Below are positions 31,888-50,920 of a stretch of DNA of 64,000 nt, in pieces (position 1 is the stretch's first letter; every line of letters starts with the position of its first letter). The notes beneath the pieces were generated by a model. It had not been told where the DNA came from. It made no database searches and was given only the letters and a program-made list of their open reading frames with translations. Both the position numbers and the translations under genes were made by a program. The stretch comes from Desulfobacterales bacterium (lineage in GTDB: Bacteria; Desulfobacterota; Desulfobacteria; Desulfobacterales; JAHEIW01). The stretch lies in assembly GCA_020353355.1 (NCBI GenBank), contig CP070694.1, forward strand, positions 2,447,026 through 2,511,025, read 5' to 3'.

Positions 31888-31893
31888 ACCAAT

Positions 31894-31931
31894 GATTGAA
31901 TATTTTTGATTGAATATTGAATATTCAATAG
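31894..31931. repeat. TTGAATATT direct repeats ending in a perfect 14-bp palindrome
   Basis: gattgaatattttt / gattgaatattgaa / tattcaatag. ATTGAATATTCAAT (31916-31929) is a perfect palindrome. It lies between the gcdA stop and the M23 peptidase start. Confidence 0.6.
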
Positions 31932-31982
31932 TAAATTCCGGCTTGTCCTGATTAGGGATTGCCCTAAAATTTTAGGTGCTCC

Positions 31983-32924
31983 ATGAAATCGTCGAGAATA
32001 AAAATATTCGCCTTAGCGACGACGACGTGGATCATGTTGAGCGGCCTCTCGACAGCAGGTGATGGTATTCAATCACATCTTCCCAACCAAGCAGCCACCA
32101 TCACGTTATCTAGCGATGCACCCGTTAATGGGAGTACCTTATTGCTGGAAATAGATACCCCAAAGGTTTCCCCACCACTGATGAACCTTCAAATACAATT
32201 TGATAACCAATCCATCCCGCTGCTTCAGCATCCGATTCGACCGGATAACGCTTTTTTTGGGATGGTTGCCATACCCCTGCAGGCAAAATTGGGTCCGAGC
32301 ATGCTGACGGTAGCCTGGGAGGATTCAAACGGCAAGCATAAACACAGCATTGCATTTCGGATCATCGCCGGAAGTTATCTTACAGATAGGCTCAGCGTTG
32401 ACCCTGGAAAAGTGGATCTGAGTAAAACAGATCTTGCCAGAGTAAAACGTGAAAAAAAAGAAATTAACCGCATCTATGCCAGTGGCAGCATGCAGAGGCT
32501 CTGGCAGGGTCTCTTTCAGCTGCCGGTAAATTCTATGGTGACCAGTGCCTTCGGCAATAAGCGCACGTTTAACGGGCAATTAAGAAGTTACCACAATGGT
32601 GTAGACTTTAGAGCACCGGTGGGGCAACCTGTATTCGCCGCCAATTCGGGGATTGTTAAATTGGCTAAAAATTTATTCTTTTCCGGAAACTTGATTATTG
32701 TGGACCATGGCACCGGTGTTTTCAGCAACTATGCCCACCTGAGCCGAATCAATGTCGAGCCCGGCCAGCACATCGAAAAAGGACAGCCGCTTGGGTTGTC
32801 CGGTGCAACCGGCAGGGTCAACGGCCCTCACCTGCATTGGGGCGTCAAGCTCAACGGTACTTACATCGATCCGCTGCAGTTTGCTGATGTCATTGCCGCC
32901 CTGGTTGGAACAGAAGCGGGATGA
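31983..32924 (+). CDS. M23 family metallopeptidase (intact catalytic motifs)
   Basis: Signal peptide. YHNGVDFRAP (HxxxD) and GPHLHWGV (HxH) are both present. Confidence 0.85.
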   Translation: MKSSRIKIFALATTTWIMLSGLSTAGDGIQSHLPNQAATITLSSDAPVNGSTLLLEIDTPKVSPPLMNLQIQFDNQSIPLLQHPIRPDNAFFGMVAIPLQAKLGPSMLTVAWEDSNGKHKHSIAFRIIAGSYLTDRLSVDPGKVDLSKTDLARVKREKKEINRIYASGSMQRLWQGLFQLPVNSMVTSAFGNKRTFNGQLRSYHNGVDFRAPVGQPVFAANSGIVKLAKNLFFSGNLIIVDHGTGVFSNYAHLSRINVEPGQHIEKGQPLGLSGATGRVNGPHLHWGVKLNGTYIDPLQFADVIAALVGTEAG

Positions 32925-32973
32925 ATTATGATCCCCAAATGGCCCTCTCGTAGAATCTCATCATTTTTTTGTT

Positions 32974-33002
32974 GACAGTCCGTCGGCTTTTCTTTATATG
33001 CC
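32974..33002 (+). promoter_or_regulatory. candidate sigma-70 promoter of the HD-GYP gene
   Basis: TTGACA (32974-32979), 17 nt, TATATG (32997-33002). Confidence 0.35.
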
Positions 33003-33030
33003 TCGCTTTCAATTCAAATAATCAATTTTA

Positions 33031-33819
33031 ATGAATAGGGGAATCCATTTCGTGGTGAACACAACCCATTTTTATTTCACAAAAAAAGCAAATTATTTAT
33101 CCCAATATGGTCACCGGCCTTATAATATTCATCCAGGCAGTCGGGAGCCATATCTGTCTGCTGATAAAGCATTGGTCCTGGCGACCCTTGCGTTTATTCT
33201 GGGTCTCAAAGATCCGTATACCGAAGGCCATGTTCGTCGGGTTGCCGTTTATGCCGGTCGTTTGGCGGCAAGGCTTGGACTGCATCCGGATGAGGTTAAT
33301 GATATTAGGCTCGGAGGGCTGCTGCATGACGTCGGGAAAATCGGTCTAAGCGACCGAATCTTCCGTCATAAGGAAGTCAGCTTATCTAAGCAGATGACCG
33401 CCGAAGTTCGCCGACATCCCTATATTGGAAGGGCCATCCTTAAACAGTTTAAATTTCCCCCGCACGTTCTGGATTATGTACTTTACCACCATGAACGGAT
33501 TGATGGTAGCGGGTATCCCTGCGGTCTTAAAGCCGATCAAATACCACTAGGCGCCAAAATCATTAGTGTGGCGGACTGCTTTGATGCGATTGTGACGGAC
33601 AGACCTTATCAAAAAGGCAAAGGGTTGACTGAGGCCCTGGCAACCCTGGAGCATCTGAGCGGTAAATTTCTCTGCCCAGATATTGTCGACATCTTTTCTG
33701 CTGAGATTCTGGCGCATGGCAAAATCGGAGCGCTGCCCAAAAAGCATTATGCACTGCGCCTCAGCCTGGATACGAAAGATCATCAATTTGGCCGAAAAAA
33801 CACAACATGCGAACATTAA
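33031..33819 (+). CDS. HD-GYP domain protein (cyclic-di-GMP phosphodiesterase type), no receiver domain
   Basis: HVRRVAVYA, GGLLHDVGKIG, HHERIDGSGYP. Confidence 0.85.
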   Translation: MNRGIHFVVNTTHFYFTKKANYLSQYGHRPYNIHPGSREPYLSADKALVLATLAFILGLKDPYTEGHVRRVAVYAGRLAARLGLHPDEVNDIRLGGLLHDVGKIGLSDRIFRHKEVSLSKQMTAEVRRHPYIGRAILKQFKFPPHVLDYVLYHHERIDGSGYPCGLKADQIPLGAKIISVADCFDAIVTDRPYQKGKGLTEALATLEHLSGKFLCPDIVDIFSAEILAHGKIGALPKKHYALRLSLDTKDHQFGRKNTTCEH

Positions 33820-34966
33820 GATTATCTTCGCACTGACCCTCATCCATTTTATAGGAGATTTTTATAGTTCGTTTATCATCCCGCTTTTGCCGCTTTTCGT
33901 TAATAAGTTTTCCCTGAGCTTGGCCCAGGCCGGTTTGATCACGGGGTTGAGTCGGTTCCTGGCGTTTGTTGTCCAACCTCCGGTTGGATATATGGCCGAC
34001 CGATATCGCACCCGCAGCTTCGCGTTAGGCGGACCGCTGCTGGTAACTGTCTTTATTTCCCTTACCGGAGTCGCACCCGAATTCTGGATATTGATAATAT
34101 TTACATGTCTTGGATCTATTGGTTCGTCCATGTTTCACCCTACGGCAGCCGGAATGGTCGAACCCTATGCGGGCAGGAATTTCGGCTTTGCCATGGCCAT
34201 ATTTGGCATGGGCGGCACCCTGGCGTTCGGAGTCGGACCCTTGTTCATCAGCTGGTTTGCAGGGACTTATGGCCTTCGCGCAACACCTTTCGCAATGATA
34301 ATAGGGTTCGCGGTAATAATTTATCTTTACCGAACAGTGCCGGTACCCGAAGTCCAAGGCATTAAACACCATGGTCTATTTCAATCGATCAAGGAAGTCT
34401 TCGGGCCGGTTTGGATTCCAATCGTCTTCATCTGGTTGGTGATGACCCTGCGGGCCTATGTCAGCCAGTCTTTTCTGACCTATTTGCCGTTGCTTTATTC
34501 TCAAAAAGGCTTTTCGCTGCTATCCATCGGCACCTTAGTTTCGCTGTTTACGGTAGCCGGTGCACTCAGCGGACTTTTCGCCGGCCATTTGTCCGATAGA
34601 GTTGGCTTTAAACCCGTTTTCATCGGCGCTCATCTGTTGACAACCCCCAGCATGTTTTTATTGTTGTATCTTCCGGGAAATTGGATTTATCCAAGTGTTT
34701 TTCTCACCGGTTTCTTCGTTCTGGCAACACTTCCTTTGGGTGTAGCGCTGGCACAAAGAATGGCACCCCAGGGAAAATCAATGGCTTCAAGCTTAATGAT
34801 GGGCCTGGCCTATGGCGCAGGGGGTTTGCTAACGCCGCTGACCGGAAAATTGGCAGACATGTTTTCGATTCGACCGGTGCTGACTACCCTAGCGTTGATC
34901 CCGATCCTGAGCATCAGCCTCATATACTACCTTTTCAAGCATTATGCGGTTTCGGTTTCACGCTAG
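33749..34966 (+). CDS. MFS transporter, Fsr (fosmidomycin-resistance)-like
   Basis: 12 predicted TM helices. N-terminal LIHFIGDFYSSFIIPLLP motif is typical of the Fsr subfamily. Start is uncertain (ATG 33749 or TTG 33788; the track ORF starts at 33683). Overlaps the end of the HD-GYP gene. Confidence 0.7.
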   Translation: MHCASAWIRKIINLAEKTQHANIKIIFALTLIHFIGDFYSSFIIPLLPLFVNKFSLSLAQAGLITGLSRFLAFVVQPPVGYMADRYRTRSFALGGPLLVTVFISLTGVAPEFWILIIFTCLGSIGSSMFHPTAAGMVEPYAGRNFGFAMAIFGMGGTLAFGVGPLFISWFAGTYGLRATPFAMIIGFAVIIYLYRTVPVPEVQGIKHHGLFQSIKEVFGPVWIPIVFIWLVMTLRAYVSQSFLTYLPLLYSQKGFSLLSIGTLVSLFTVAGALSGLFAGHLSDRVGFKPVFIGAHLLTTPSMFLLLYLPGNWIYPSVFLTGFFVLATLPLGVALAQRMAPQGKSMASSLMMGLAYGAGGLLTPLTGKLADMFSIRPVLTTLALIPILSISLIYYLFKHYAVSVSR

Positions 34967-34989: not shown

Positions 34990-36354
34990 TCAGAATCGTG
35001 TTGCCGGGAATTTGGCGGGATATGCTTTATAATAATGGGAGCCTTGCCAGCTTTTCTTGAGTGCCTTGTTGAATCGATAGGACGCATAGAAATTTATTGG
35101 CTTTTTTAAACTGAATAAGGACTTGAACATCCTGTACTGATTCCATGGAAAAGAGTATAGGCGCTGTTTAACATAATTATCGCCGATATAAATCGTATCG
35201 GGATTCACTCCTTCAGGTTTGCGGACCACGTAAGACAGGCGATACTTCGCCCAATCATCAGGAAATTTTCGATAAAGCAGACGGTCCTCCTTTTCCATTT
35301 GCTCCATAAATTCGGTTCCAGGCAAGGGGGTGAGAATGGATAGCTGGACCACATCAATGCCGGAATGGATTAAAAAGGATGCCAATTCTTTATAATAGGC
35401 AGGCGACTCATGATCGTTTCCGATGATAAACGCGCCGATGACCCCGATTCCATATTTGTGAAATGCATCGACGACGTTCTTATAATTCTCTACCCCTATC
35501 TTCAGGTTCACCCCTTTTTTCATGTCCATTAAATTCGACTCACTAATCGTTTCAAAACCAATAAAGGCAAACATGCACCCTGCCTCGGCAGCCAGCTTGA
35601 GCACGTGCTCTTCATTGGCAGAATCAATAGATGTTTGCATCCACCATTTTTTGTTGAGGCCCAGCGTAAGCATGCCCTCAAATATGTCAGCCGCTCTGCG
35701 TTTACTTTCGCGACTGTATCCGATTAGATTATCATCTAAAAAAAATAAATACTCACTGCTTATATCTTGCAACTCATCCAGGACATCGTTGGCAGTTCGT
35801 TGACGGAATTGTTTTCCTAAATATTTTGAGACTGAACAGAAATTGCAATCAAACGGACAGCCTCGCGAAGTTTGGATGGAATGAAAGAGATATCTTTGAT
35901 TCAATAAATCACGTCTCGGTTTGATGCTGCTTTGAGATAGGTCTATCCAAGGGCCGCGATATTTGTCGGACAAGCAGTTATTTTCGAAATCCGCTATTAC
36001 GTTTCTCCAGATACCCTCAGCTTCGCCGATGACCACCGTATCGGCATATTGCAGCACTTCATCGGGCAACATCGATGCGTGTATTCCTCCAATTACGACC
36101 TTTATATTCCGCTGACGATATGTCTGGGCGATTTCATATGCGCGGTTAATGTTGCTGGTGAACGCGGAAATGCCAACCAAATCGGCTTCTTCGTATTCAG
36201 ACCGGTCAAAATTTTCATCTATTAATTTCACCTCCCAATTGGATGGCGTCACCGCAGCAACATAAGCCAGGCCTAATGGTGGGATCGTGGAAAATTTGCT
36301 CAACAGATAGCCACTGACCTGACCGACGGGATTTATTAAAAGAAGTTTCTTCAT
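34990..36354 (-). CDS. B12-binding-domain radical SAM protein
   Basis: Start at ATG 36354 (MKKLLLINP...). N-terminal cobalamin-binding Rossmann part (LVGISAFTSN...VVIGGIH). Radical-SAM cluster motif CPFDCNFC. Confidence 0.85.
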   Translation of the reverse strand: MKKLLLINPVGQVSGYLLSKFSTIPPLGLAYVAAVTPSNWEVKLIDENFDRSEYEEADLVGISAFTSNINRAYEIAQTYRQRNIKVVIGGIHASMLPDEVLQYADTVVIGEAEGIWRNVIADFENNCLSDKYRGPWIDLSQSSIKPRRDLLNQRYLFHSIQTSRGCPFDCNFCSVSKYLGKQFRQRTANDVLDELQDISSEYLFFLDDNLIGYSRESKRRAADIFEGMLTLGLNKKWWMQTSIDSANEEHVLKLAAEAGCMFAFIGFETISESNLMDMKKGVNLKIGVENYKNVVDAFHKYGIGVIGAFIIGNDHESPAYYKELASFLIHSGIDVVQLSILTPLPGTEFMEQMEKEDRLLYRKFPDDWAKYRLSYVVRKPEGVNPDTIYIGDNYVKQRLYSFPWNQYRMFKSLFSLKKPINFYASYRFNKALKKSWQGSHYYKAYPAKFPATRF

Positions 36355-36468
36355 TTCATATAAGATCCTGATTTCTGAAGAAAAGCTATAGACGAAATAT
36401 GAAAATAGCAAGAAGTTTTTTCCCGCAATGATTCCCCTGGCAAAATCATATGATCCTCAAATCCGCAA

Positions 36469-37770
36469 TCAATACGGCTGCTCTTCCTTTTGACATACTG
36501 CTTGATAATCAAAACGTAATGCCAAAATCAAACCTATCCATATTGCACAGATACTAATGGTAAACCAACTTAATTGGGCGACGCTGATCGTAAATGGCAA
36601 CCACTGGGTAAAAAGCAAAATTAACACGGACCCCGAAACCTTAAAAATTCGGTATCCAAACATATCAATCCACGCTTTAGCCTGATATATGATGATGGGA
36701 TCAACAGGGATATACAGCAGTTCCTTTGAAGCGCGATTAATGGAATATGATAAACCGCGGTCGCTGATCTTGATGGCGCAACCAAAAAACAGGGTTGATT
36801 GAAATAAAAAACACCAGGAGAAAAGGCTGATCATTAATGGCTGGGCCAGCAACCCACCGATCGCACCGAAAAACCGGTGAATGCAGGGGGTAATAAGCAA
36901 ATTTATACCTATGGAAATCAGACCCATTACACTGAAAAACAATGACAAAAACGCCGTCCGTGCTTCCCTTTCCGGATAGAATTTTTCAACCGTATTTAAA
37001 TATTGATAATCGATTAAAGGCGAAACCAGTTGGGCCAGCATTAAAATCGCTGCGATCAGCAATAAATATCGGCTGTGCCCCAAAATTCGCCAACCCCCCT
37101 TGGTCGCTGTTTTTAGATGAACGAAGTGTTCAACTTCACAATAGATTCCGGCACGCCCCATGAACCAGGTTAAGATAAAGATCAAAAAGAGGGTAGCTGC
37201 CGCCGTTATCATAAGATCCGGTGTCTGCAAGGCTGTGCGCTGGATTAATAATGCCGAAAACCCACCGCCGGTCACACCGCCGACCAGACCACCCGTTCCC
37301 ACAAGGCCGTACCAGGACTTGCCTTCCTGGGTCGTATAAACAGAGTTGGTCAAACTCCAGAATTGCTCAATCAATACAACACTAAAGATATCTACAAATA
37401 CATAAAAACATATGGGTATGGCCGGCCCGGGGAGATTAAACAACAAGCGAAACACAATCAACAAAGCGCTGGATACCAGAGATGTCCCCAGCACCACGTG
37501 AAGCCTGCTGTAACGTTCAACCCATCGATGATAATAGGAAATAAACACAACCATGGTCACGGCAGTGATAATCCATACATAAGGTAATCTGGCGGCACCC
37601 ACATCCTCAATAAATAGAGAGCGGCTGGCCGGTTTCAATTGATACAATGCCATCGTAATCAGAAAAAAATTGACAAATAAAAAAACTGCTCGAATACCCA
37701 GCTGTCGCAGCGCAACGTATTTTTCTTTACATTTTGCGATGATGTCCAGTTTTGAAGTTTCCACTTGCAA
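36469..37770 (-). CDS. multi-pass membrane transporter, TLC/Npt (ATP:ADP antiporter-like) or MFS-related
   Basis: About 11-12 TM helices. N-terminal FLFVNFFLITMALYQLKPASRSLF resembles the TLC-family LKxxRDxL signature. Assignment is by resemblance only. Confidence 0.5.
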   Translation of the reverse strand: MQVETSKLDIIAKCKEKYVALRQLGIRAVFLFVNFFLITMALYQLKPASRSLFIEDVGAARLPYVWIITAVTMVVFISYYHRWVERYSRLHVVLGTSLVSSALLIVFRLLFNLPGPAIPICFYVFVDIFSVVLIEQFWSLTNSVYTTQEGKSWYGLVGTGGLVGGVTGGGFSALLIQRTALQTPDLMITAAATLFLIFILTWFMGRAGIYCEVEHFVHLKTATKGGWRILGHSRYLLLIAAILMLAQLVSPLIDYQYLNTVEKFYPEREARTAFLSLFFSVMGLISIGINLLITPCIHRFFGAIGGLLAQPLMISLFSWCFLFQSTLFFGCAIKISDRGLSYSINRASKELLYIPVDPIIIYQAKAWIDMFGYRIFKVSGSVLILLFTQWLPFTISVAQLSWFTISICAIWIGLILALRFDYQAVCQKEEQPY

Positions 37771-37800
37771 TCTCTTTCATTATTAGTAATAATTCTTATT

Positions 37801-38688
37801 ATGAATTTTAAAATTCAATTCATTGCATGCCTTATCCTGGGCATGCTGTTCGCAATTCCGGTGGATGCTCAGCAGCAAACTCCGTCGTTAGGCGAAGACT
37901 GCGATCCTGTTTTGCAAAAAGGCCTGGTGGGCTCCCTGAATTTCCTGAAATTAGACAGCGCGGCGGATCGAAAGAATCTCAGCGTTGTCGTCGTCGATAT
38001 TACCGATCCCTTTTCCCCGCGCATGGCCTATGTCAATCCCAATGAGATGATGTATGCTGCCAGTCTGCCGAAGATTGCCATATTACTGGGAGCATTTGAT
38101 CGCATCTCCAAAGGGGAAATGAACCTTGATGACGCAATGTTGGACAAACTTAAAAAAATGATTCGCAATTCGTCCAATGAGGCGGCCACCGAAATTCTAA
38201 ATCTCGTCGGAAAAGAATACGTGAACGAACTGTTGCAATCACCTCGCTATCGCCTGTATGACCTGGAAAAAAATGGCGGTATCTGGGTCGGCAAGGAATA
38301 TGATAAATCACCGGCCTATGATCGCGATCCATTGCATAATCTATCCCATGGCGCTACTGCCCTTCAAGTCGCCCGCTTCTATTATTTGCTGGAAACTGGC
38401 CAGCTGGTTTCCCCGGAACTCAGTCAATTGATGAAATCAATCTTAGGTCAACCCGCCATTGAACATAAGTTTGTCAAAGGACTTAAAAAAGTTCATCCCA
38501 AATCCCGCATTTACCGCAAATCCGGAACCTGGAAGCAGTATCATTCGGACAGTGCCATTATCGAACATGATGGCCGTCGCTATATCGCCGTGGCCCTGGC
38601 CAAAAGTCCCCATGGTGAAAAATGGCTCACGCAGTTAATTGTGGCGCTGGATAAACTCGTATGTGCACCTGCCTCTACTGTGCAATAG
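37801..38688 (+). CDS. exported class A beta-lactamase-fold serine hydrolase
   Basis: ATG 37801 (MNFKIQFIACLILGMLFAIPVDAQQ signal). SxxK = ASLPK, SxN = SSNEA, KxG = KSGT. Confidence 0.7.
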   Translation: MNFKIQFIACLILGMLFAIPVDAQQQTPSLGEDCDPVLQKGLVGSLNFLKLDSAADRKNLSVVVVDITDPFSPRMAYVNPNEMMYAASLPKIAILLGAFDRISKGEMNLDDAMLDKLKKMIRNSSNEAATEILNLVGKEYVNELLQSPRYRLYDLEKNGGIWVGKEYDKSPAYDRDPLHNLSHGATALQVARFYYLLETGQLVSPELSQLMKSILGQPAIEHKFVKGLKKVHPKSRIYRKSGTWKQYHSDSAIIEHDGRRYIAVALAKSPHGEKWLTQLIVALDKLVCAPASTVQ

Positions 38689-39958
38689 ATCTCCTGTTTT
38701 TATGATAATTTTCGATCAATCGATGCAAGCGTGTCGCCAGCGTCTGATGAACCACCGCTGAATTTTTACGCAAGACATTCGACATTACTGCCACCATGTA
38801 ATATAGTTTTCTTTCTGCCGCCGGTGATTCAATAATGGCCACCGAATTCAGCATGTTCACTTCATTGCCATGGTATTTCCGGCATTTAAAATCGGGTTCG
38901 GCTTTGCACTTATACAATGAGCCGGATTTAAAATAAACGGCGGCATTTCCCAGGGCCGGCGCGGAGGCATACCGAATTCGACCCTGGGTCATGTAAATCA
39001 GCCGCTTAATTTCGCGGCTTGAAAAAGTATCCACGAGTTTTCCTTGTTCCAGTTTTATTAAAAAGCGCAACAACGCCCGCGAATTGGCATAGCTGGTGGT
39101 TCCCGGTATACGTTTTTTTCCCTTCCAGGTAAAAAACGACCCTTGACGAAGCTGCGCAATATCCAGGCCACTGCGAGTTACCGGACCCTGTAAAGCACTG
39201 GATAAAAGAACCGCAAGCTCCTGCTTGGGCGTTTCGCTCAAAAATGCCTCCGCCACTTCAGCACTAATCGGATAGGCTTTGCCAAATTTGACCATCAGCA
39301 CAAGCTCCCGCATAACCATGCTGGCGGCCGCATTCGAACTGGCAGACAGCATCCAGTCAAGATAGGTCCACAAACTGGCCTGATCACCGACCTGGATCGG
39401 ACGGTACCAGATTTTTTCGCTGTCCAAGGTCCAGAAAGGCACTATGTGATGATCGGATTGGATGAACTCATCAGCGGTAACGGCCGTATGTCGCAATACC
39501 TTTATGCGCGCTGCTATATCTTCAGGATAAATATCAGCCAGGGTCTGGAAGACTGCCAGAGCCACAATTATTTTGCCGACACTGCCCGGATTGGCGAGGG
39601 CATCACCGCGATGCTCGGCATAAAGCGGCTGCTCGGGATTGGACAAATCTAGCAGCGCCACCCCGTAACGATCGGATTCAGCCCCTAAAAGATTTTTAAT
39701 TTTCGTCGTAAACTCCGGATCCGGGTCAGGAATCTTGAAATCAGGTCGGCCCAACAACCGCACATCGACCTGATCATTGCGCAGCAGCGCGCCGGCATAC
39801 AGACGGATGCCGCGCACTTTGCCTTCCTGGGCCAAACGGAACCCCTCCAATCGCAAAATACCGGTATATGCAAAGCCATCCAATGGATAGCACCAGCCGT
39901 AGGACACTCCCAGCAACCAAAAAATGAGAACACCAAATTGTGAAAGAAGCAGTTTCAT
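38675..39958 (-). CDS. exported beta-lactamase-fold serine hydrolase (divergent paralogue)
   Basis: ATG 39958 (MKLLLSQFGVLIFWLLGVSYG signal). SxxK = GSVGK, SxN = SSNAA, KxG = KSGS. Its start overlaps the stop of the upstream gene (39960-39962). Confidence 0.6.
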   Translation of the reverse strand: MKLLLSQFGVLIFWLLGVSYGWCYPLDGFAYTGILRLEGFRLAQEGKVRGIRLYAGALLRNDQVDVRLLGRPDFKIPDPDPEFTTKIKNLLGAESDRYGVALLDLSNPEQPLYAEHRGDALANPGSVGKIIVALAVFQTLADIYPEDIAARIKVLRHTAVTADEFIQSDHHIVPFWTLDSEKIWYRPIQVGDQASLWTYLDWMLSASSNAAASMVMRELVLMVKFGKAYPISAEVAEAFLSETPKQELAVLLSSALQGPVTRSGLDIAQLRQGSFFTWKGKKRIPGTTSYANSRALLRFLIKLEQGKLVDTFSSREIKRLIYMTQGRIRYASAPALGNAAVYFKSGSLYKCKAEPDFKCRKYHGNEVNMLNSVAIIESPAAERKLYYMVAVMSNVLRKNSAVVHQTLATRLHRLIENYHKNRRSIAQ

Positions 39959-39959
39959 A

Positions 39960-42878
39960 TCACTCTCCGGGAATTTTATCCAGATTAATGCGAAGGACAT
40001 GATTTTCGTTTAATTCTTGATCGAGGCGGTTTAAAAACAGGTTTTGACGCGCCCGGGGACTGTCCAGAAACGGTCGAATTTGAAAAAGCAACAATTGATT
40101 CTGGAAAAAACCAAATTCGATATCCGCCGGCACCGGACGACCGTCTGCGTCCAGCAATTTGGGGAACCGCATGGGAACGGATTTCGCAAATTTTATTAAA
40201 TCGGTAATCTCGCCGGATGATAATATCGCTTCGCTGCCACTTGCCGGGACCTTTTTCACACCACCTGTGGCCAATAAAATACGTTTGCTTGGCTCAGTGG
40301 CATGCGCCATCAATCGAACGCGGCCGGTTTCTCGATGAACTCGCAATTCCTCCGCCGCCTGACCCGAAACCGCACCGCCGACCCCCTCATTGACGGCAAT
40401 CGTGAGCCAATCCATTTGTCCGCTGTCCACATCTGCGGTAACCATCACTCCGGATTTGTCGGCGGGTATGCTTTTTTGGAGCAGCACGGAAACATATAGA
40501 TGCTGCGGATTCTCCATATACGCCTGGCGCCACTGATACGCGCGTTCGGTAAAGGCAGAGGCCCATACCCGGCTGATCGCCTTCAGCACATTTTCAAAAC
40601 CGACCACATTGGCTACCGTGAGGTTGAGCCCGGCACCGGTAAATCCCGGAAGATCTTCCACATTGGTGTCGCTGCGCACGAAAACCCCATATGTCCCGTC
40701 CGCGCCAAAGGTGGCTTGCATGGCTCCACGCAGGCGATCACGAAACGCCGGACCGGGATCGGCATTTACAATCCATTGTTGTAGTTGCGTTAAAAACTGG
40801 CGGATGGCGAGTTTTTGCTCGCCGGGGGTATTGCTTAAACTCCGGATCATCGTATAGCGTTCCAGCATCCAGCTAAACACGGTGGGGCCGTCGGGCGCAA
40901 TTGGCTGATCCAGTAGTTCCCGATACACACCAAAGGGGATAACCAATCCATCGGCAACCGCCGCCGGAAAATGATGTTTAAGCTCGCCAAGATTGGCCGC
41001 CTTGGGTCCGGCGACGCGTCCGGAATCATTTGCCCTTAAATCTTGGAGTGCAATAAAACTTTGATGGTGAAGATCCAGCTTATTGAGATCCGGGCGTATC
41101 AGAACCCGTTGAGGTGTTTTTCCGTCGAAGAAAATGGTGTCCCACTGGGGGCCATCATCAACGAGTTGAACAATACCCCCGGGACTTACTGCCAACACGA
41201 CGTTTTGCCCGATGTGGGAGCTGAATTGCGGCAGCAGTTTTTTATCCACAGCAGCGTTGGGGATACCCAGATTGCGGGCCAATAACTGGACATGTGAAAG
41301 CATATTTCCCTGACCGGCTGTGATGATACCGGCCACCGGCGGCAGATCCTCAGTGGTTGCCGGTAAAACATAGATACCGTTGCGATCAAATTTTGCACGG
41401 TGTTCTCCCGTCCGCGCAACCCGCAGAACACCTCGGGCAAGCCCGGCATTCAGACCGCGCAGACCGGAAGACACCTTCTGTCCGAACAACGTCGTGTGAA
41501 TGCCTAATTTAATATTGACATCGGCCATCAGGCTATCGAGAACGGCGGCATAGAAAAGCAACAGGCTGCCGCGCAATCGATCGTGGATGTAACGGCTTGC
41601 AATGGGATCAAGCTCGGTCAAGCGGGCGACCGCTTGCGAAAAATGAAATCGAACCGTTCGGTCCGCCCATCCGGGCACCAGTGCAGCATAATCTAATTCC
41701 GTCTTATAATCGATTAACACCGCTCCTGTCTGCGTGCTGCGGTCAAAACTATCTGTTAAGGCGTTCCACTGTCTTTGGGAAAGAATTCCGATACCGTAAA
41801 GTGCGGCAGCAGTTTCCTTTAACCAGGCGATCCGTTGACGGCGGGTGGCCTGTTCAAGTTTTTCCAGAAGATCATTTGCGCTGCGAAACACCTCGTCTTC
41901 CAGAGTCAAGCTGACATTCAACGCCGCAAGCTTTTGGTGGGCGCTGCCCAAGTTCGAGAAGTTGTCACGAAGTGCTGCCAATAGACGGCAAGCAGCGGCA
42001 AAACGTATCCAGGGGGTATTTTCTTTTGACAATTGACCGGCACGCTGATTGAGCAATCGGACCAACGTGCTATCGCTAACCTGCTTGGATAATGAGCGCA
42101 ACTCAGATCGAAGCTCTGCGGGATTGAACACCTTTTCAATGATGATTGCCAAATGTTCATATTCCCCTGACAAATCAACCCGTCCTTTTTGGGCGGCATA
42201 GGTTCGCACCCGCGCGGCATCGCCTAATTCCGGTTTGACATGGATCTTAATCCGGAGGGGTTCGAAATTGGTGTCATGCTCGGCAAATGCCAGGGACAAT
42301 TGTCTCATCTCACTAATCGGTGCACCGCTGCGCCCATGGGGAAATAATTTTACGGCCTCTCGCAAAACCAGATATTTATCTCCCCACGGCGGTTCCGCAG
42401 CAAGGACGAGCAAAAGACTGCGGCCGCTGCGGCTTTCATCTTCGGCTTGCAGTGCACCCCGGTAAAACCGGGCGTTGCGGAATATCCATCCGTCATCCGC
42501 CCCAATCAGAAACTGTTCCACAATCATCTGCTTTACCATATCGGGATGCTCGGGATTCTGTAATAACTCTTGAGGGTCAATATCCGCAAATACATTGGCG
42601 ACGTAATAGCCATTTGCCCGCAGGGTCTTGACCCGATCGGTCCATTCACCGTGTTGCACACCTCCGCCGTGATCTTTACAGGCATACTCTGTGGGAGGTA
42701 GAATCGTGCCGTCATTGCAAAACCAGCGGATATGTTTAAACGGGCCTCGCGCCGACATCTTCATTTCTGCAACCCAACTGCGCAAGTTGCTTTCATCAGG
42801 CAAGGTTGTCGTCGCGGACGCTGCCACCGGGAGCAAGCTAACAAAAATTGATAAAATGACGTGTGCCAATGGTTTCAT
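39960..42878 (-). CDS. exported PEP-synthase/rifampin-phosphotransferase-superfamily protein with permuted domain order (unknown N-domain, swivel-His domain, ATP-grasp PPDK_N domain)
   Basis: Signal peptide MKPLAHVILSIFVSLLPVAASA/TT. PEP-utilizer mobile domain around PVAGIITAGQGNMLSHVQLLARNLGIPNAAV. C-terminal PPDK_N-type ATP-grasp (GPKAANLGEL, VFVRSDTNVEDLPGFTGAGL, WASAFTERAYQWR, SGVMVTAD, EFGFFQNQLLLFQIRP). Confidence 0.75.
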   Translation of the reverse strand: MKPLAHVILSIFVSLLPVAASATTTLPDESNLRSWVAEMKMSARGPFKHIRWFCNDGTILPPTEYACKDHGGGVQHGEWTDRVKTLRANGYYVANVFADIDPQELLQNPEHPDMVKQMIVEQFLIGADDGWIFRNARFYRGALQAEDESRSGRSLLLVLAAEPPWGDKYLVLREAVKLFPHGRSGAPISEMRQLSLAFAEHDTNFEPLRIKIHVKPELGDAARVRTYAAQKGRVDLSGEYEHLAIIIEKVFNPAELRSELRSLSKQVSDSTLVRLLNQRAGQLSKENTPWIRFAAACRLLAALRDNFSNLGSAHQKLAALNVSLTLEDEVFRSANDLLEKLEQATRRQRIAWLKETAAALYGIGILSQRQWNALTDSFDRSTQTGAVLIDYKTELDYAALVPGWADRTVRFHFSQAVARLTELDPIASRYIHDRLRGSLLLFYAAVLDSLMADVNIKLGIHTTLFGQKVSSGLRGLNAGLARGVLRVARTGEHRAKFDRNGIYVLPATTEDLPPVAGIITAGQGNMLSHVQLLARNLGIPNAAVDKKLLPQFSSHIGQNVVLAVSPGGIVQLVDDGPQWDTIFFDGKTPQRVLIRPDLNKLDLHHQSFIALQDLRANDSGRVAGPKAANLGELKHHFPAAVADGLVIPFGVYRELLDQPIAPDGPTVFSWMLERYTMIRSLSNTPGEQKLAIRQFLTQLQQWIVNADPGPAFRDRLRGAMQATFGADGTYGVFVRSDTNVEDLPGFTGAGLNLTVANVVGFENVLKAISRVWASAFTERAYQWRQAYMENPQHLYVSVLLQKSIPADKSGVMVTADVDSGQMDWLTIAVNEGVGGAVSGQAAEELRVHRETGRVRLMAHATEPSKRILLATGGVKKVPASGSEAILSSGEITDLIKFAKSVPMRFPKLLDADGRPVPADIEFGFFQNQLLLFQIRPFLDSPRARQNLFLNRLDQELNENHVLRINLDKIPGE

Positions 42879-43148: not shown

Positions 43149-44666
43149 CTATCGGCGTGCACAGGAGATTGCATAACCTCCGGTGAGCGCTTTGCTGAAT
43201 TGCAAAAAATGGGTAATGCAATCGGGAATTTCGTCAGCATGATGCGTTACAAAGAGTATATGGGTTTGGCTATGGCGGGCGATAAAATCGATTAAATCCA
43301 AAATCATTTTTCGGTTGGTGCGATCCAATCCCTGACAGGGTTCATCCAAAATCAGCAGCAACGGCAATTTGACCATGGCTCGAGCCAATAACACCAGACG
43401 TTGCTCGCCATAGGACAGCTGATTAAAAAGAGTATCTGCTTTGTCCGTCAGGTGAATAAAGTCCATCCATTTGCGGGCTAACTCCCGCTGGGCTGAGTTG
43501 CTTTGGCGATACAGTCCCACCGAGTCAAAAAACCCCGATATGACAACATCCAGAGCCTTTATCGACTTGCGATAGCGAATCTGAAATTCAGACGAAATCA
43601 GGCCGATCCGTTGTTTAATCTCCCCAACACTTTCCCCGGTGCCTTTCCGTCTGCCAAACAAAAAAATATCATTGGCGTAAGCTTGCAGGTTTTCTCCGAC
43701 AATCAGATTAAGCAAGGTGGTTTTGCCGGCTCCATTTGGCCCAATAATGGCCCAGTTCTCGCCGGATTTCATCTTCCAGCTCAGATGATCAAGGATGACA
43801 GCATTCTGATATTTAACTGTTGCATTTTTCATTTCCACCAGTACATTAGGTGGTTTCCATGTGTTGCCATCATCTGGATATTTTTGAATTGGGAACTCAT
43901 CTTCATCAAATAGATTGTCAGGATACAAACGCTGAATCTGATCAGCGCTCAGTGTATCTTCTCGCTTTCCCTGAAAAAATACCTCACCATTTTTTAATCC
44001 CATGATATGGGAAATAGGCGCTAAAATATCCGCGAGGCGATGGGTCACTAAAATGATTTGTCTATCCTGCGCCATCAGGTGATTGATCATATCTGCCAGC
44101 TTGGATCGGGAAGCAACATCAAGCCCATCAAACGGTTCGTCCAGGATGAGAAGCTGTGGAGATTTTACCAGAGCTTGGGCAATCAGTATTTTTCGCATCT
44201 CGCCGGTGGATAAAAATCGAATGCCTCTATCCATCACATCATCAAGACCGAGTTGCGCGATGATGGCATCCAATTGTTGACCAGGGATATCTAAATTTGG
44301 AAGGGCTTCGCAAATTACTTCACGCGCGGTGGTAATATCGTTTAGCTTTCCGCTAAAATAACGAGATGCATCCCGGTTTTTTTCGCGCGCGATCAGGCGC
44401 TGATGACGTTCAAAGGATACATAACATATCCGGTCTTTAAGTAACTCAGCACCATGATAGGCGATTTTTCCCCGAACAACCGGAAGTTCACCGACAATCG
44501 CACGCACCAGTGAAGACTTCCCGGCCCCATTGGGCCCGATGATCGCCCAGTGCTGGTGTCTTTTGATAACCCAATTGGTATTGGCTAAAATAAATTTGTC
44601 CCGCACCCTGATGGTGACGCCGTCGAGGGTAATAATAGCTTGATTGTCAACGTTAGCCTGGTTCAT
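43149..44666 (-). CDS. tandem-NBD ABC ATPase without permease, ModF-like
   Basis: Two ABC cassettes: GPNGAGKSS...LSTGEMRK...LILDEP and GPNGAGKTT...LSYGEQR...LILDEPCQGLD. Confidence 0.8.
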   Translation of the reverse strand: MNQANVDNQAIITLDGVTIRVRDKFILANTNWVIKRHQHWAIIGPNGAGKSSLVRAIVGELPVVRGKIAYHGAELLKDRICYVSFERHQRLIAREKNRDASRYFSGKLNDITTAREVICEALPNLDIPGQQLDAIIAQLGLDDVMDRGIRFLSTGEMRKILIAQALVKSPQLLILDEPFDGLDVASRSKLADMINHLMAQDRQIILVTHRLADILAPISHIMGLKNGEVFFQGKREDTLSADQIQRLYPDNLFDEDEFPIQKYPDDGNTWKPPNVLVEMKNATVKYQNAVILDHLSWKMKSGENWAIIGPNGAGKTTLLNLIVGENLQAYANDIFLFGRRKGTGESVGEIKQRIGLISSEFQIRYRKSIKALDVVISGFFDSVGLYRQSNSAQRELARKWMDFIHLTDKADTLFNQLSYGEQRLVLLARAMVKLPLLLILDEPCQGLDRTNRKMILDLIDFIARHSQTHILFVTHHADEIPDCITHFLQFSKALTGGYAISCARR

Positions 44667-44858: not shown

Positions 44859-45782
44859 TCAAAATTTTACTTTATCCAATCCTTTCAGATTGAGAATTTC
44901 ACGGGCTTCATCCGGTGTGGCCGGCTCGATGCCGTGCTCTCTTGCAATCCGAATAATCTTCTCTACCTGCTGGGCATTGCTTTCCGCCATGCGACCTTTT
45001 TCCAGATAAAGATTATCTTCAAGTCCAACTCGGGTGTGCCCCCCCATCAACAGCGACGCATTGCACATCCTGAATTGGTGCCTCCCAGCAGCACAAACCG
45101 ACCACTGAAAATTATCTCCGATAAGTTCTCTTGCAGAGTTATATAAAAATAAAAGATTGTTCATCGTGGCCTGCATCCCGCCCAAGATACCGAGAACAAA
45201 CTGCAAATAGACGGGCGCGTTGACATAACCGCGGGAGATTAAAAAGGCAACATTGTTGAGCATGCCCGCATCGTAGACTTCAAATTCCGGCTTTGTGTTT
45301 TGCTCGGCGAAATATTGGCTGAATTCCTTGAGCGTCTTAAACGTGTTGGGAAAGATAAAATCTTCGCTCATACCCAGATATTGCGGCTCCCAATCGTATT
45401 TGAATTCTTTGATTTTATCCAGAACCGGAAAAAGCGCAAAGTTCATAGACCCCGCATTCAACGACGCCAGCTCCGGACTATAGGCGTTGACCACCGCCAC
45501 CCGTTGCTCGGTGGTTTGCCCAAAACCGCCACCGGTGGTGGTACAAACCACCACGTTGCACCTGCTCTTGATCTTCGACAGAACGTCACCAAACAAATTA
45601 ACGTCTGCCGTAGGTTGACCGGTTTGTGGGTTGCGTACATGGATGTGCACCACGGCTGCCCCGGCGTCACAGGCCCGTTGCGCCTCATCGGCGATTTCAT
45701 CCGGTGTTATGGGTAAACTTGACGACATGGTGGGCGTATGAATACTGCCCGTGATAGCCGCAGTCACAATAAATTTGCTCAT
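44859..45782 (-). CDS. 3-keto-5-aminohexanoate cleavage enzyme family (BKACE/DUF849) protein
   Basis: MSKFIVTAAITGSIHTPTMSSSLPITPDEIADEA...AGAAVVHIHVRNP. TIM-barrel BKACE signature over the full length. Confidence 0.9.
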   Translation of the reverse strand: MSKFIVTAAITGSIHTPTMSSSLPITPDEIADEAQRACDAGAAVVHIHVRNPQTGQPTADVNLFGDVLSKIKSRCNVVVCTTTGGGFGQTTEQRVAVVNAYSPELASLNAGSMNFALFPVLDKIKEFKYDWEPQYLGMSEDFIFPNTFKTLKEFSQYFAEQNTKPEFEVYDAGMLNNVAFLISRGYVNAPVYLQFVLGILGGMQATMNNLLFLYNSARELIGDNFQWSVCAAGRHQFRMCNASLLMGGHTRVGLEDNLYLEKGRMAESNAQQVEKIIRIAREHGIEPATPDEAREILNLKGLDKVKF

Positions 45783-47376: not shown

Positions 47377-50300
47377 TTATTGCGCTTTCGTAACCCCGTC
47401 TGTTTTGAGGGGTTGTGGAGGCTCGGCCACCACGCGTACCTCCAGCGGTCCGGTTGCATCCAGATGCACATCGCGCTGGGGAAAGGCAATCGTTACCCCC
47501 GCTTCTTTGAATGCGTTATCAATGGTAACGTTCAATTTATGCAGCATGGGGTACCAGTTCTCAATTCCGTTAATATATACCCGCAGTTCAAAGTCCAGAC
47601 TGTTGTCTCCAAAGCCCTTGAAGACGGCATCCGGCGCGGGTTCGGAGAGAACGTGCGGGTTTTTGCGGGCGGCCTGCAAGAGCAGTTCTTCGGCCAATTT
47701 GGTATCGGAGCCGTAAGCGATTCCAACCGGTATCCGAATCCGGATATACTTATCCGAAAGCGACCAGTTGATCAGCCGGCCGACAACAAACTCTTTGTTG
47801 GGGACGATCAACTCCTTGCGATCCCAGTCGACGACCGTCGTCGCCCGGATACGGATACGCGATACGGTTCCGCTGATGTCGCCGATCGTGACGGTATCAC
47901 CGACTCTGAACGGCCGTTCGAACAGGACGATCAATCCGCAGATAAAGTTCGCCACAATTTCCTGCAATCCGAAACCGAGGCCGACACCCAGAGCCGCAAT
48001 CAGCCACTGCAAACTTGCCCATTTGATGCCGATTGTATTGAAAACAATTATGATACCTATCGCTGTGATCGTGTATCGGCAGACGGTTGAGTAGGCGTAT
48101 CGTGCCCCGGGATCCATCGGCAAACGATTCAACAATATCACTTCCAGCAGGCCCGGCAGGTTGCGGCTGGCAATAATCGTTGTCACGGCCACAATGACTG
48201 CCATGAAGATGTTGGCCAGGGTGATGGGAACCGTTTTTGCAACTCCGTCCACCACCGTACTGTAACTCCAGAATTGGATATCCTGCAGGATGCCGAAGGC
48301 TGGAAACACAGGCTCCCAGATGGCCCAGATTCCTGCCAGCGCCAAGATGAACACAACCAGTTTCAAAAGCTTACGGGTTTGTTCATCAATCTGACTCATT
48401 TCGACGATGGTTTCCATCTGCGATGAGCGAGTGCCGCCGCCGGGATCTATGGCGGCTTCCGCGCGTGAGGTCGATTCTTGATGCAAGTTTTGATTTGCGA
48501 AAGCTTTCTTTAAAGCAATCCTGCGGCGCGCCAGTACCAGCATCCGCCGCATCAGATCGTTGAAGACTATCAAAACAAAAAAAAGCCCTATGGTATTGCG
48601 GGTGAGGTTGCGTATTTCGATGGCCGAATAAAAATAACCGATCACCGCCAGACAGAAAATAAAGAGCGGTAGAAGGATGGCCAGAGGATACCAAACGTAT
48701 CGCAGACGGCACAGCCAGCTTTGGGGCTGTTTTTCAATCAATACGGATGTGATGCCGCCCCTGAATCTCAGGGTGCGCGCTGCGAATGTGGATAGGGCCA
48801 GGGTCTGAATCATGAGGGCTAATTTAGCGAGCGCATCGCTGTATTCAAATTCAGGTACTGTTTCCATCGCCCCTATGAAAAAGGAGGTCACCGTTGAGAT
48901 CGGGATAAACCAGCCCAGATTGCGCTTGATGATCCGGCGGGCTGACTCCGGCCATTGGAAGTGTGCCTGGGCCAGACCGTATTTTCGGCAGATATTGTAG
49001 AACAGGACTAAAAAGATAAGGATACGGGTAGCATAGATTAGGCCGCCGGCAATGCCGGCGCTGAACGGGTATGCCGGACGCAGATTTGTCAATTGAATTG
49101 CCGGAAATGCCAGTAGAAACGGCCAGACAGCGGCCAGCACCACCGTCAGTCCCAGGGCTTTAATCGTCAGCAGAAAGGAATCCTCCACCTGCTGCTCGAC
49201 GCATTCAGCGATATCCTTCAGTTTTCTGCGGGCCCACCTGCGACTGACGATCAGAAACAGACCGATCAGCAAGCCGATGATCCAGATGGCGGTCTTCTGA
49301 CGGAATGACCGGTCCACATCCTTCAATAATTGGTTCCAGGAAGCCGGTTCGAAAAACCATCCCAGGGAGACTTTCAGCTTCTGGATGTCGCCGATACCGA
49401 CCGGCTTGGAGCTGCGAATCCAGAGTAGGTGGCGATCGAGCAATTCACCGAAATCCTCGGCAGTGTTGACCAGTTTCTGTTCGGTAAATTCAATATCCTG
49501 TATCAATTTGAAGATCCGGTCGTAGCCGGATGTCAATTTTTGGATGATATCGAGGCGATTGGCTACCAATTGCTGAATTTTCAAATCAAGTGGCCTGCGG
49601 TCGACATCCGAGAGAAAGCTGACGGAAGCGATCACACGATCTGCGAGGGCCTTGGGGTCGGAAAGTTCTCGCAGCAACGGACCCAGCTCGATCTGTCTCT
49701 CGCTGATTTCGCTCATTCTGATCTGACGGGCATCGGAATCCGCAAAATACTGATCGGCATTGGGCAGGTTCAGACGCTGTGTGCGCAGCGCCAATCCAAT
49801 CGCCTCGGTCAGCACGGCGGATTCAACTCTCTTTTTAGCCGTTTCAAATTCCTCTTCCAGGGCCTTCAGACGGGATTGATAATCTTCATATTTTCCTGCC
49901 AGTACGGTTTCTTCCTGGGTAATTTTTTCCAGCTCGGCACTCAGTTCAATGTTGATGTCAAATTGGTCCTGGACAATCTTGGGCAGCAGGGGAGCCTTGA
50001 CGATGGCGTCCTGGGCGTCCTCCCGTGCCTGAGCGGCTTCCTGCTGGCGGCGTTTCTGAACATCTGCCTGCCAGCTTTTCAACATTTTTTCGCGGCTTTC
50101 CACCGCTTTCTGGGCGATATCTCGCTCCGTGCTGAACAATTCGACAAGCAGATTATGGCTGCGCTGTCGCAGCTCGTTCAATTTGATTTCGGCTGTTAAT
50201 TTTTCCCGCTCGGACCTGAGGCTTAGCACCTTGGAATGATTAAGTATATCTGTCTCGGCCGCTCCGGATGTTGTTTCCAGCTCAGTTTGTATGTCTTTGA

Positions 50301-50844: not shown

Positions 50845-50920
50845 ATCTCGCCTCCCGGGCACTGATGAGCTGACACTTGCGTGAGGTCAGGTGCTGACGG
50901 GCAAAATTTGAATGAGATAG

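Follow-up and report, generated by a model that had tools for sequence, protein, structure and literature searches.

The window analysed here, a stretch of 64,000 nucleotides from the chromosome of a Desulfobacterales bacterium (contig CP070694.1, positions 2,447,026 to 2,511,025 of the forward strand), harbors four neighbouring genes which encode a 972-aa protein of the dikinase type, two serine hydrolases of the beta-lactamase fold and a membrane transporter of the TLC/NTT family of nucleotide carriers. Judged from its sequence, the 972-aa protein is a predicted-exported and catalytically intact dikinase-type enzyme, and the four genes occur together in several bacterial phyla. Domain anatomy, conservation of catalytic residues, signal peptides on the three soluble proteins and the cross-phylum conservation of the four genes were computed. 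The features of the locus are the following:

36469..37770, minus strand: TLC/NTT-family inner-membrane transporter of 433 aa (PF03219, 64.9 bits against a cut-off of 21)
37765..38688, plus strand: predicted exported serine hydrolase of the beta-lactamase fold, 295-307 aa (PF13354, 74 bits against a cut-off of 22)
38675..39958, minus strand: predicted exported serine hydrolase of the beta-lactamase fold, 427 aa (PF13354, 30.6 bits against a cut-off of 22)
39960..41006, minus strand: ATP-grasp (PPDK_N) domain of the dikinase, residues 625-972, and stop codon (PF01326)
41007..41123, minus strand: flexible linker of the dikinase, residues 586-624 (predicted local distance difference test score, pLDDT, below 50 in the AlphaFold2 model)
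41124..41495, minus strand: phospho-histidine swivel domain of the dikinase, residues 462-585 (PF00391 below its cut-off, together with an invariant His motif)
41292-41294, minus strand: codon of the presumed catalytic His529 (invariant His motif)
41496..42812, minus strand: N-terminal domain of the dikinase, residues 23-461, presumed to hold the substrate site (AlphaFold2 model; no match in Pfam or PDB)
42813..42878, minus strand: predicted Sec-type signal peptide of the dikinase, residues 1-22, with predicted cleavage between ASA and TT (sole hydrophobic segment with a conserved layout)

The open reading frame (ORF) of the 972-aa protein lies at 39960-42878 on the minus strand, where the initial annotation had placed it. 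Its stop codon (TGA, 39962-39960) is followed after a single base by the ATG of the 427-aa hydrolase gene at 39958, which is preceded by GGAG 6 nt on its 5′ side; the reported abutment of stop and start is thus correct, and in two other genomes the source gene calls for dikinase and hydrolase even overlap by 4 nt. The two hydrolase genes are convergent, their 3′ ends overlapping by 14 nt (38675-38688), while the 307-aa gene and the transporter gene diverge head to head. The starts of the latter two are at most about 30 nt apart and overlap if the 307-aa gene begins with the TTG at 37765 instead of the likelier ATG at 37801 (37765-37801). Such convergent and divergent overlaps imply shared or overlapping control regions, and the same arrangement recurs in other loci. 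A scan for promoters and terminators gave a number of sites not above that of shuffled sequence, and an Rfam scan of the whole window detected no riboswitch or other RNA hinting at a ligand.

In the AlphaFold2 model of the 972-aa protein (mean pLDDT 75.5), a small beta element precedes about 24 helices, which extend up to residue 460; the beta-rich His domain spans 462-585 and is separated from the ATP-grasp domain by a disordered linker (586-624).

Conservation of the four-gene set

One genome per species was scanned by means of the alignment of close homologues, and the dikinase was detected in at least 586 species genomes belonging to at least six phyla or classes. The hosts include Desulfobacterales, Gammaproteobacteria (Halieaceae, Ectothiorhodospiraceae, Methylococcaceae), Nitrospirota, Myxococcota, Opitutales and Spirochaetales. 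Synteny was analysed in 82 loci, 80 of them from species-representative genomes of Desulfobacterota, Gammaproteobacteria, Nitrospirota, Myxococcota, Opitutales and Spirochaetales, with counts taken over those loci that had room for the gene concerned. The 427-aa hydrolase gene is present in 65 of 69 such loci and lies directly downstream of the dikinase gene on the same strand in 59 of them; the 307-aa hydrolase gene was found in 46 of 55, and 43 of 55 carry a TLC-like gene. Of these 43, 28 have a transporter that is closely orthologous to that of the window, and the rest a member of a second, divergent subfamily. The association was also seen in the reverse direction, in a metagenome scan seeded with the transporter: among its loci with room, the 307-aa gene is adjacent in 61 of 61, the dikinase gene is present in all 29 that could hold it, and for the 427-aa gene the count is 28 of 29. 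The loci recovered in this way are 58-82% identical orthologues and therefore not fully independent.

Genes flanking the set vary from locus to locus, and all-against-all clustering combined with Pfam counts of 99 flanking ORFs revealed no fifth conserved gene. We consider it very probable that the four genes are functionally linked. The initial annotation had suggested a module of two or three genes; the pairing of dikinase and hydrolase on which it relied is conserved in the loci described above, and the transporter gene at 36469-37770, which it had missed, has to be added as the fourth member.

Export of the dikinase

The N-terminus (MKPLAHVILSIFVSLLPVAASA, followed by TT) represents the sole hydrophobic segment of the 972-aa protein. 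In all 120 homologues with 60-99% identity, it combines a positively charged n-region with a core of 12-15 hydrophobic residues, which varies freely in sequence, and an AxA-like site, and directly after this site begins the conserved mature start LPD..LRSWV..MK..RGPF..IRWFC.DG. The same layout is present in most of 89 distant full-length representatives with identities of 28-50%. A variable core followed by a conserved mature start is the behaviour of a cleaved Sec signal peptide, which is predicted here from a reading of the n-, h- and c-regions and agrees with the signal that the initial annotation had called convincing. The Cys pair that was listed there, C54/C67, is invariant in an alignment of 55 close homologues and kept in 88 of the 89 distant members. 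The window dikinase contains one further Cys, and the pair alone is conserved, which fits an oxidising compartment. On these grounds, we regard export of the dikinase as highly probable.

The opposite case, in which the segment is an uncleaved N-terminal anchor with the body of the protein in the cytoplasm, or an artefact of the start codon, would allow the enzyme to use cytoplasmic ATP. It gains what weight it has from the export call being a prediction based on n-, h- and c-regions, and appears very improbable. The positive n-region in front of the hydrophobic core predicts an orientation with the N-terminus inside and the C-terminus outside (positive-inside rule), AxA-like sites are conserved with conservation of the mature sequence setting in right behind them, and there is no alternative conserved start downstream. 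In addition, the co-conserved partners are types of exported proteins, and the conserved Cys pair suits an oxidising compartment. A cytoplasm-facing or uncleaved anchor, a possibility raised in the initial annotation, is thus not what the alignments display, namely a cleavable-looking and conserved signal peptide.

Catalytic competence

The Pfam model PPDK_N (PF01326) matches residues 623-943 with an E-value of 2e-29 and covers profile positions 4-315 of 328, in agreement with the full C-terminal domain annotated before. For the swivel domain, PF00391 matches residues 506-540 just under its cut-off (21-22.6 bits against 23.1), and the annotated phospho-His site is nevertheless well founded, as T520, G522, G524, N525, S528 and H529 are invariant in the alignment of 55 members and the G-N-x-L-S-H529 motif aligns with the catalytic His region of phosphoenolpyruvate (PEP) synthases and of glucan,water dikinase (GWD). 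Also invariant in this alignment are K626; R735, S736, D737, E741 and D742; K808, S809 and G810; and D919, E921, Q933 and R935. From alignments and established knowledge, we take the invariant residues to be the nucleotide-binding, Mg-binding and phospho-His positions of PEP synthase (PPS) and pyruvate phosphate dikinase (PPDK), so that the catalytic residues of the ATP-grasp domain are present. In the distant representatives, the catalytic motifs are kept in 81-88 of 89. A Foldseek comparison matched the ATP-grasp domain to the ATP domain of rifampin phosphotransferase (RPH; 5hv6, E 3e-12, template modelling (TM) score 0.83) and further to PEP synthase 2ols and HpeI 9goj. The protein carries both the ATP-grasp and the phospho-His domain and in this respect belongs to the superfamily of His-swivel dikinases (PPS/PPDK/RPH/GWD). 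Its conserved residues indicate that it is likely to be an active enzyme.

Given a periplasm without a classical ATP pool, and since pseudoenzymes are common, the protein might instead have kept the dikinase fold as a non-enzymatic periplasmic binding or scaffold protein, an alternative that had been considered in the initial annotation. The invariant catalytic residues contradict it and, together with the match to the ATP-grasp fold, render it extremely unlikely. Every catalytic residue examined is invariant in close homologues, purifying selection on the active site that reaches as far as the distant representatives would be unexpected in a pseudoenzyme, and a nucleotide transporter is co-conserved.

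Relationship to known dikinases

The succession of substrate-like, swivel and ATP-grasp domains had been interpreted as a circular permutation of the layout of rifampin phosphotransferase. The same order is already known from GWD: the potato enzyme GWD1 comprises two carbohydrate-binding modules of family CBM45, an all-helical central domain at 483-926 (444 aa), a His domain at 931-1050, which is joined to the central domain via a loop of 4 residues, and an ATP domain at 1069-1387 (PMC13553574). The window protein shares this order of substrate domain, His domain and C-terminal ATP domain. BLASTP against the C-terminal region of Arabidopsis GWD1 yielded a single collinear alignment (E 1e-9) that starts in the His domain and reaches into the ATP domain, and hhalign related the dikinase family to GWD with 99% probability (E 9e-18, 410 columns, query positions 483-944). 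Both proteins have an all-helical substrate domain of about 440 aa that is joined directly to the His domain, then a linker and a C-terminal PPDK_N domain, and they probably have in common the swivel mechanism and the stoichiometry in which ATP is converted to AMP and Pi with formation of the phosphorylated substrate.

Membership in the GWD family proper fails on three points. Pfam detected no CBM45, CBM20 or other carbohydrate-binding module in residues 23-461; the model GWD1_pHisD (PF22973) remained unmatched at E-values up to 1, whereas real GWDs score 118-177 bits; and hhalign assigned the N-terminal domain a probability of 0.9% of being related to the GWD central domain, of which the last ~200 residues were compared. 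Furthermore, the 972-aa protein has a signal peptide, whereas GWD resides in the ATP-containing plastid stroma, and it is accompanied by serine hydrolases and a nucleotide transporter in place of the amylases and phosphoglucan phosphatases that go with GWD and phosphoglucan,water dikinase (PWD). Sequence comparison thus suggests a separate family with the architecture and probably the mechanism of GWD. The two plant-type enzymes are hosted by plants, algae and some bacteria.

These observations also bear on the idea of a glycan dikinase in the strict sense of GWD, which would phosphorylate an osmoregulated glucan, an exopolysaccharide or a peptidoglycan strand and so alter its solubility or turnover, the two hydrolases being only loosely coupled. 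Domain order and domain sizes match the GWD catalytic core, and the accessory phosphatase of some loci is reminiscent of the phosphoglucan phosphatases with which GWD is paired. This function is nonetheless improbable in view of the missing carbohydrate-binding modules, the unmatched PF22973 and the unrelated N-terminal domain, and because analysis of the flanking ORFs revealed no conserved glycoside hydrolase nearby.

With RPH and PPS/PPDK, the protein shares a homologous ATP-grasp domain (phmmer E 1e-13 to 1e-15) and the catalytic His motif on the swivel domain. These enzymes are cytoplasmic, however, and ordered differently: ATP domain, His domain and PEP barrel in PPS/PPDK, which is reversed in the 972-aa protein, and ATP domain, substrate domain and His domain in RPH, whereas here the His domain precedes the ATP domain. 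An assignment as PEP synthase or PPDK was rejected, as the PPS equivalog models scored 113 and 108.7 bits against cut-offs of 598 and 739.75, the order is reversed and the barrel PEP-utilizers_C (PF02896) has no match in the protein. Rifampin phosphotransferase was likewise rejected (NF041857, 82.8 bits against 999; other domain order; no Foldseek match to the rifampin-binding domain). On sequence grounds, the enzyme is best filed among the His-swivel dikinases as one with GWD-like order, a new substrate domain and predicted export.

GWD is commonly regarded as an enzyme of plants and algae. Genuine GWD homologues were also encountered in bacterial metagenome-assembled genomes labelled Nitrospirales, Gemmataceae and Planctomycetes (P0334, P0338, P0353 and P0356), which are 46-49% identical to the C-terminus of Arabidopsis GWD1 and contain GWD1_pHisD.

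The N-terminal domain

The unrecognised domain mentioned in the initial annotation corresponds to about 440 aa (residues 23-461) and has no relative in Pfam or PDB. It consists of a small beta element, which includes the invariant C54/C67 and a GGGxQHG motif, followed by about 24 helices, and residues 150-460 reach a pLDDT of about 85-90 in the full-length AlphaFold2 model. Pfam gave no match in residues 23-461 and a sequence profile of the domain gave none in PDB. A Foldseek search of PDB with a model of the domain alone, which is of moderate quality (pLDDT 67.8), had a best E-value of 0.3 with a TM score below 0.2 and revealed no similarity to the rifampin-binding domain.

The domain forms a large structural family, amounting to 611 representative clusters at 50% identity, and full-length proteins that carry it measure about 920-1050 aa, mostly 945-1010 aa. 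Since it is almost confined to proteins of this size, the architecture is fixed. The invariant residues of the domain are rich in Arg, His, Asp and Glu, which suggests a polar or anionic ligand.

The two serine hydrolases

Both hydrolases carry the motifs of serine beta-lactamases and penicillin-binding proteins (PBPs), SxxK, SxN and KxG. In the 427-aa protein, SVGK, SSN and KSG are conserved in at least 94% of 56 orthologues, and in the 307-aa protein SLPK, SSN and KSG in at least 95% of 45 orthologues. A signal peptide is found in 24 of 27 orthologues of the former and also in the latter. Like class A beta-lactamases and PBP-A, both exceed the cut-off of the Pfam family Beta-lactamase2, keep the three motifs and have signal peptides. 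They differ from these enzymes in that neither matches any NCBIfam model, beta-lactamase, PBP and resistance models included, and in that sequence and profile searches of PDB gave no significant match for either (best PBP-A TLL2115, E 0.07, for the 307-aa protein). The 307-aa protein had been described as a second exported, class-A-like paralogue. It is indeed predicted to be exported and belongs to the Beta-lactamase2 family, but the two are not close paralogues, as pairwise BLAST found nothing significant between them and they have the superfamily alone in common; the 427-aa hydrolase is about 130 aa longer than its companion of 294 aa mature length. One orthologue of the 427-aa protein (L068:9838-11145) has the lipobox LLAAGC in place of a plain signal peptide, and the enzyme may therefore be tethered to the membrane in some lineages.

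Enzymes of this fold next to a dikinase might point to inactivation of xenobiotics or antibiotics in the periplasm, where the dikinase would phosphorylate an incoming small molecule, the beta-lactamase-like enzymes would hydrolyse it or related compounds, and the transporter would either provide the ATP or carry the product out. The structural proximity of the ATP domain to that of rifampin phosphotransferase is in line with this, as are the intact SxxK/SxN/KxG motifs of partners from the Pfam family Beta-lactamase2 and the presence of small-molecule kinases such as RPH and HpeI in the dikinase superfamily. Against it stand the RPH equivalog score far below its cut-off, the lack of NCBIfam matches, resistance models included, for the hydrolases, and an N-terminal domain which is unlike the rifampin-binding domain according to Foldseek. 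Moreover, no copy of the N-terminal domain was found among 72,556 plasmids (PLSDB) and there is no context of mobile elements, while the synteny of four genes across phyla, with the dikinase in at least 586 species genomes, points to a housekeeping role in the envelope. We judge such a detoxifying function unlikely, and the antibiotic-like substrate proposed in the initial annotation thus receives little support from resistance models, plasmids or the chromosomal, multi-phylum synteny. PADLOC gave no match to a defence system.

The TLC/NTT transporter

The transporter is a polytopic protein with at least 10 hydrophobic segments and a multi-helix body resembling the major facilitator superfamily (MFS), and its Pfam score places it in the TLC/NTT family. 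Its sole matches in PDB are the structures of ADP,ATP carrier protein 1 from two sources (9j3n, profile E 1.7e-20; 9j3j, 3.8e-14). With Rickettsia Tlc1, Chlamydia Npt1 and plastid NTT1, it has in common the Pfam model TLC and an MFS-like body of 10-12 helices, and these carriers are its only relatives with solved structures. In contrast to them, it is very divergent, occurs in free-living bacteria and is proposed to work outward toward the periplasm.

To our knowledge, no transporter family other than TLC/NTT exchanges ATP across bacterial-type membranes. An outward direction has reportedly been inferred solely for an ATP-providing endosymbiont. NTTs are widespread in free-living bacteria, with 33 deltaproteobacterial and 45 gammaproteobacterial sequences, almost all characterised members forming one clade from parasites and plastids (Major et al. 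2017, PMC5381601), and their function in free-living bacteria is acknowledged to be unknown (PMC5381601). In a 2026 preprint, the mitochondrial carrier is called the only known ATP exporter.

A nucleotide carrier encoded two genes away from the dikinase bears on the paradox of an ATP-grasp enzyme in a compartment without ATP, which it would resolve while taking the paradox seriously. With three soluble proteins predicted to be exported, a dikinase selected to stay catalytic and a TLC-type protein that travels along with them, supply of ATP to the periplasm is the most economical explanation of the transporter, and we consider it an even chance that this is its function.

Transport in the opposite direction would turn the module into a salvage system for external nucleotides or organophosphates, the dikinase working toward synthesis of nucleoside triphosphates or using another donor, or else its phosphorylated product being taken up. 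All characterised NTT/TLC proteins are importers or uptake exchangers (PMC5381601), the hosts are mostly sediment bacteria, and in 8 loci a periplasmic acid phosphatase of the nucleotidase type lies beside the module. Some dikinase reactions, such as that of PPDK, are reversible. On the other hand, there is no known high-energy phosphate donor in the periplasm to drive the synthesis of ATP, the two serine hydrolases would be left without a role, and the ATP-grasp residues are those of dikinases that consume ATP. Import thus appears improbable.

In many Gammaproteobacteria, Myxococcota, Opitutales and some delta lineages, the slot of the transporter is filled by the second TLC-like subfamily. 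Its members are 22-31% identical to the window transporter and usually lie on the opposite strand; 7 of 9 tested members match Pfam TLC, 6 of them above the cut-off. The following members of this subfamily were located:

L044:12890-15082
L046:10931-12340
L055:12291-13673
L062:297-1685
L065:10917-12377
L071:12300-13700
L077:12151-14160

Proposed function of the module

The data suggest, at slightly less than an even chance, a module of four genes acting on the cell envelope around a periplasmic His-swivel dikinase which is fed with ATP by a dedicated exchanger. In this scheme, the 972-aa protein would be exported via the Sec pathway. Its C-terminal ATP-grasp domain would bind ATP and pass phosphate to His529 on the swivel domain, which would then carry it to a substrate bound by the N-terminal domain, yielding the phosphorylated substrate, AMP and Pi, as expected from the logic and domain order of GWD. 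The TLC/NTT transporter would serve as exchanger, releasing ATP into the periplasm and returning AMP or ADP, possibly together with Pi, to the cytoplasm. Both exported SxxK serine acyl-hydrolases or transferases would act on the same substrate, either before or after its phosphorylation. Here we infer actual export, ATP as the cargo, the outward direction of transport, the nature of the substrate, and that the hydrolases have the substrate of the dikinase.

An envelope polymer or a peptide-bearing compound is most likely the substrate of the dikinase, and the PBP-type partners hint weakly at peptide-bearing envelope material. By analogy with GWD, phosphorylation may make the polymer accessible to the hydrolases or mark it for them. 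A comparable logic is established for the O-acetylation of peptidoglycan by PatA/PatB/Ape1, in which a membrane protein moves an activated group through the inner membrane, a periplasmic transferase attaches it to an envelope polymer, and a serine hydrolase then acts on it. The likeness is one of analogy only, as there is no sequence relationship and the group transferred would be phosphate from ATP here and is acetyl there.

Several points weigh against the proposed module. The whole analysis is computational throughout, the reading as a module included. Characterised NTTs all import nucleotides, namely into parasites or plastids (PMC5381601), and the window transporter is a very distant TLC member (TIGR00769, 47 bits against a cut-off of 387). 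In 12 of 55 loci with room, there is no TLC-like gene within 7 kb. The N-terminal domain has no detectable relative, so that any substrate named for it is guesswork. The comparison with the last ~200 residues of the GWD central domain detected no homology. Any ATP reaching the periplasm could be lost by leakage through porins. As far as we know, AMP, which a dikinase releases, is no cargo of the classic ATP/ADP exchangers, and we know of no link of serine enzymes of the beta-lactamase fold with phosphorylated substrates.

More generally, it may be envisaged that free-living diderms of several phyla deliberately export ATP by means of a dedicated NTT/TLC exchanger to power a GWD-like dikinase of the envelope, the product of which is processed by two enzymes of the PBP/beta-lactamase fold; in this broad form, the proposal is put forward as tentative and stays clearly below an even chance.

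According to the textbooks, the periplasm contains no ATP, and all known periplasmic steps that require energy therefore draw on the inner membrane or on lipid-linked donors activated beforehand. An exported dikinase of the ATP-grasp type that is conserved along with a nucleotide transporter of its own would be a directly testable exception to this rule. If the proposal is true, ATP-driven enzymology served by a dedicated nucleotide supply line would be described for the first time in a bacterial periplasm, and an NTT clade of free-living bacteria would be assigned its first function; the proposal would thereby give a concrete hypothesis for the role of these transporters in free-living bacteria (PMC5381601). 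Should the substrate be a polymer of the wall or envelope, the logic of phosphorylating in order to remodel, as known from starch, would be extended to bacterial envelopes, while the N-terminal domain adds a large structural family of about 440 aa without a known relative. Searches of full-text literature found no description of the module, of exported PPDK_N ('PEP/pyruvate-binding') proteins or of a periplasmic ATP-dependent kinase, in accordance with the earlier remark that no described system of this composition was known to its author, and if the supply of ATP holds, the whole system would be without a described counterpart.

Neighbouring genes

The sole recurring extra neighbour is a lipoprotein of the class B/C (HAD-IIIB) acid phosphatases, whose gene directly adjoins the module in 8 of 82 loci and occupies three different positions. 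The loci belong to Desulfobacteraceae and Gammaproteobacteria and represent two phyla; a lipobox is present, and the protein of L030 matches PF03767 with an E-value of 1e-39. The genes are located as follows:

L025:13599-14465
L027:13545-14402
L030:438-1490
L034:520-1383
L050:15788-16720
L064:14287-15120
L066:7125-7937
L080:8117-8998

Acid phosphatases of this class are periplasmic or outer-membrane nucleotidases, and the enzyme may be related to the turnover of AMP or of a phosphorylated product.

Upstream of the dikinase gene, the window contains the gene of a 505-aa protein that has two ABC ATPase domains but lacks a membrane domain (43149-44666, minus strand), and that of a beta-keto acid cleavage enzyme (BKACE; 44859-45782, minus strand). 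This pair is also found upstream in the Desulfobacterales loci L001 and L038, and BKACE in L012. It is absent from other phyla and therefore probably reflects lineage synteny. The transporter gene is adjoined by that of a B12-binding radical SAM protein (34990-36411, minus strand), of which a homologue occupies the same place in L006 and L010 only. Genes for a carboxyl transferase, a cell-wall M23 peptidase, an HD/HDOD protein and an MFS transporter at 30154-34966 flank the module as well, and parts of this set recur beside it in L001, L002 and a JGI contig. Finally, 47377-50862 on the minus strand encodes an ordinary-looking MscK-like mechanosensitive channel of 1161 aa with a signal peptide, a coiled-coil periplasmic domain and an MscS core.

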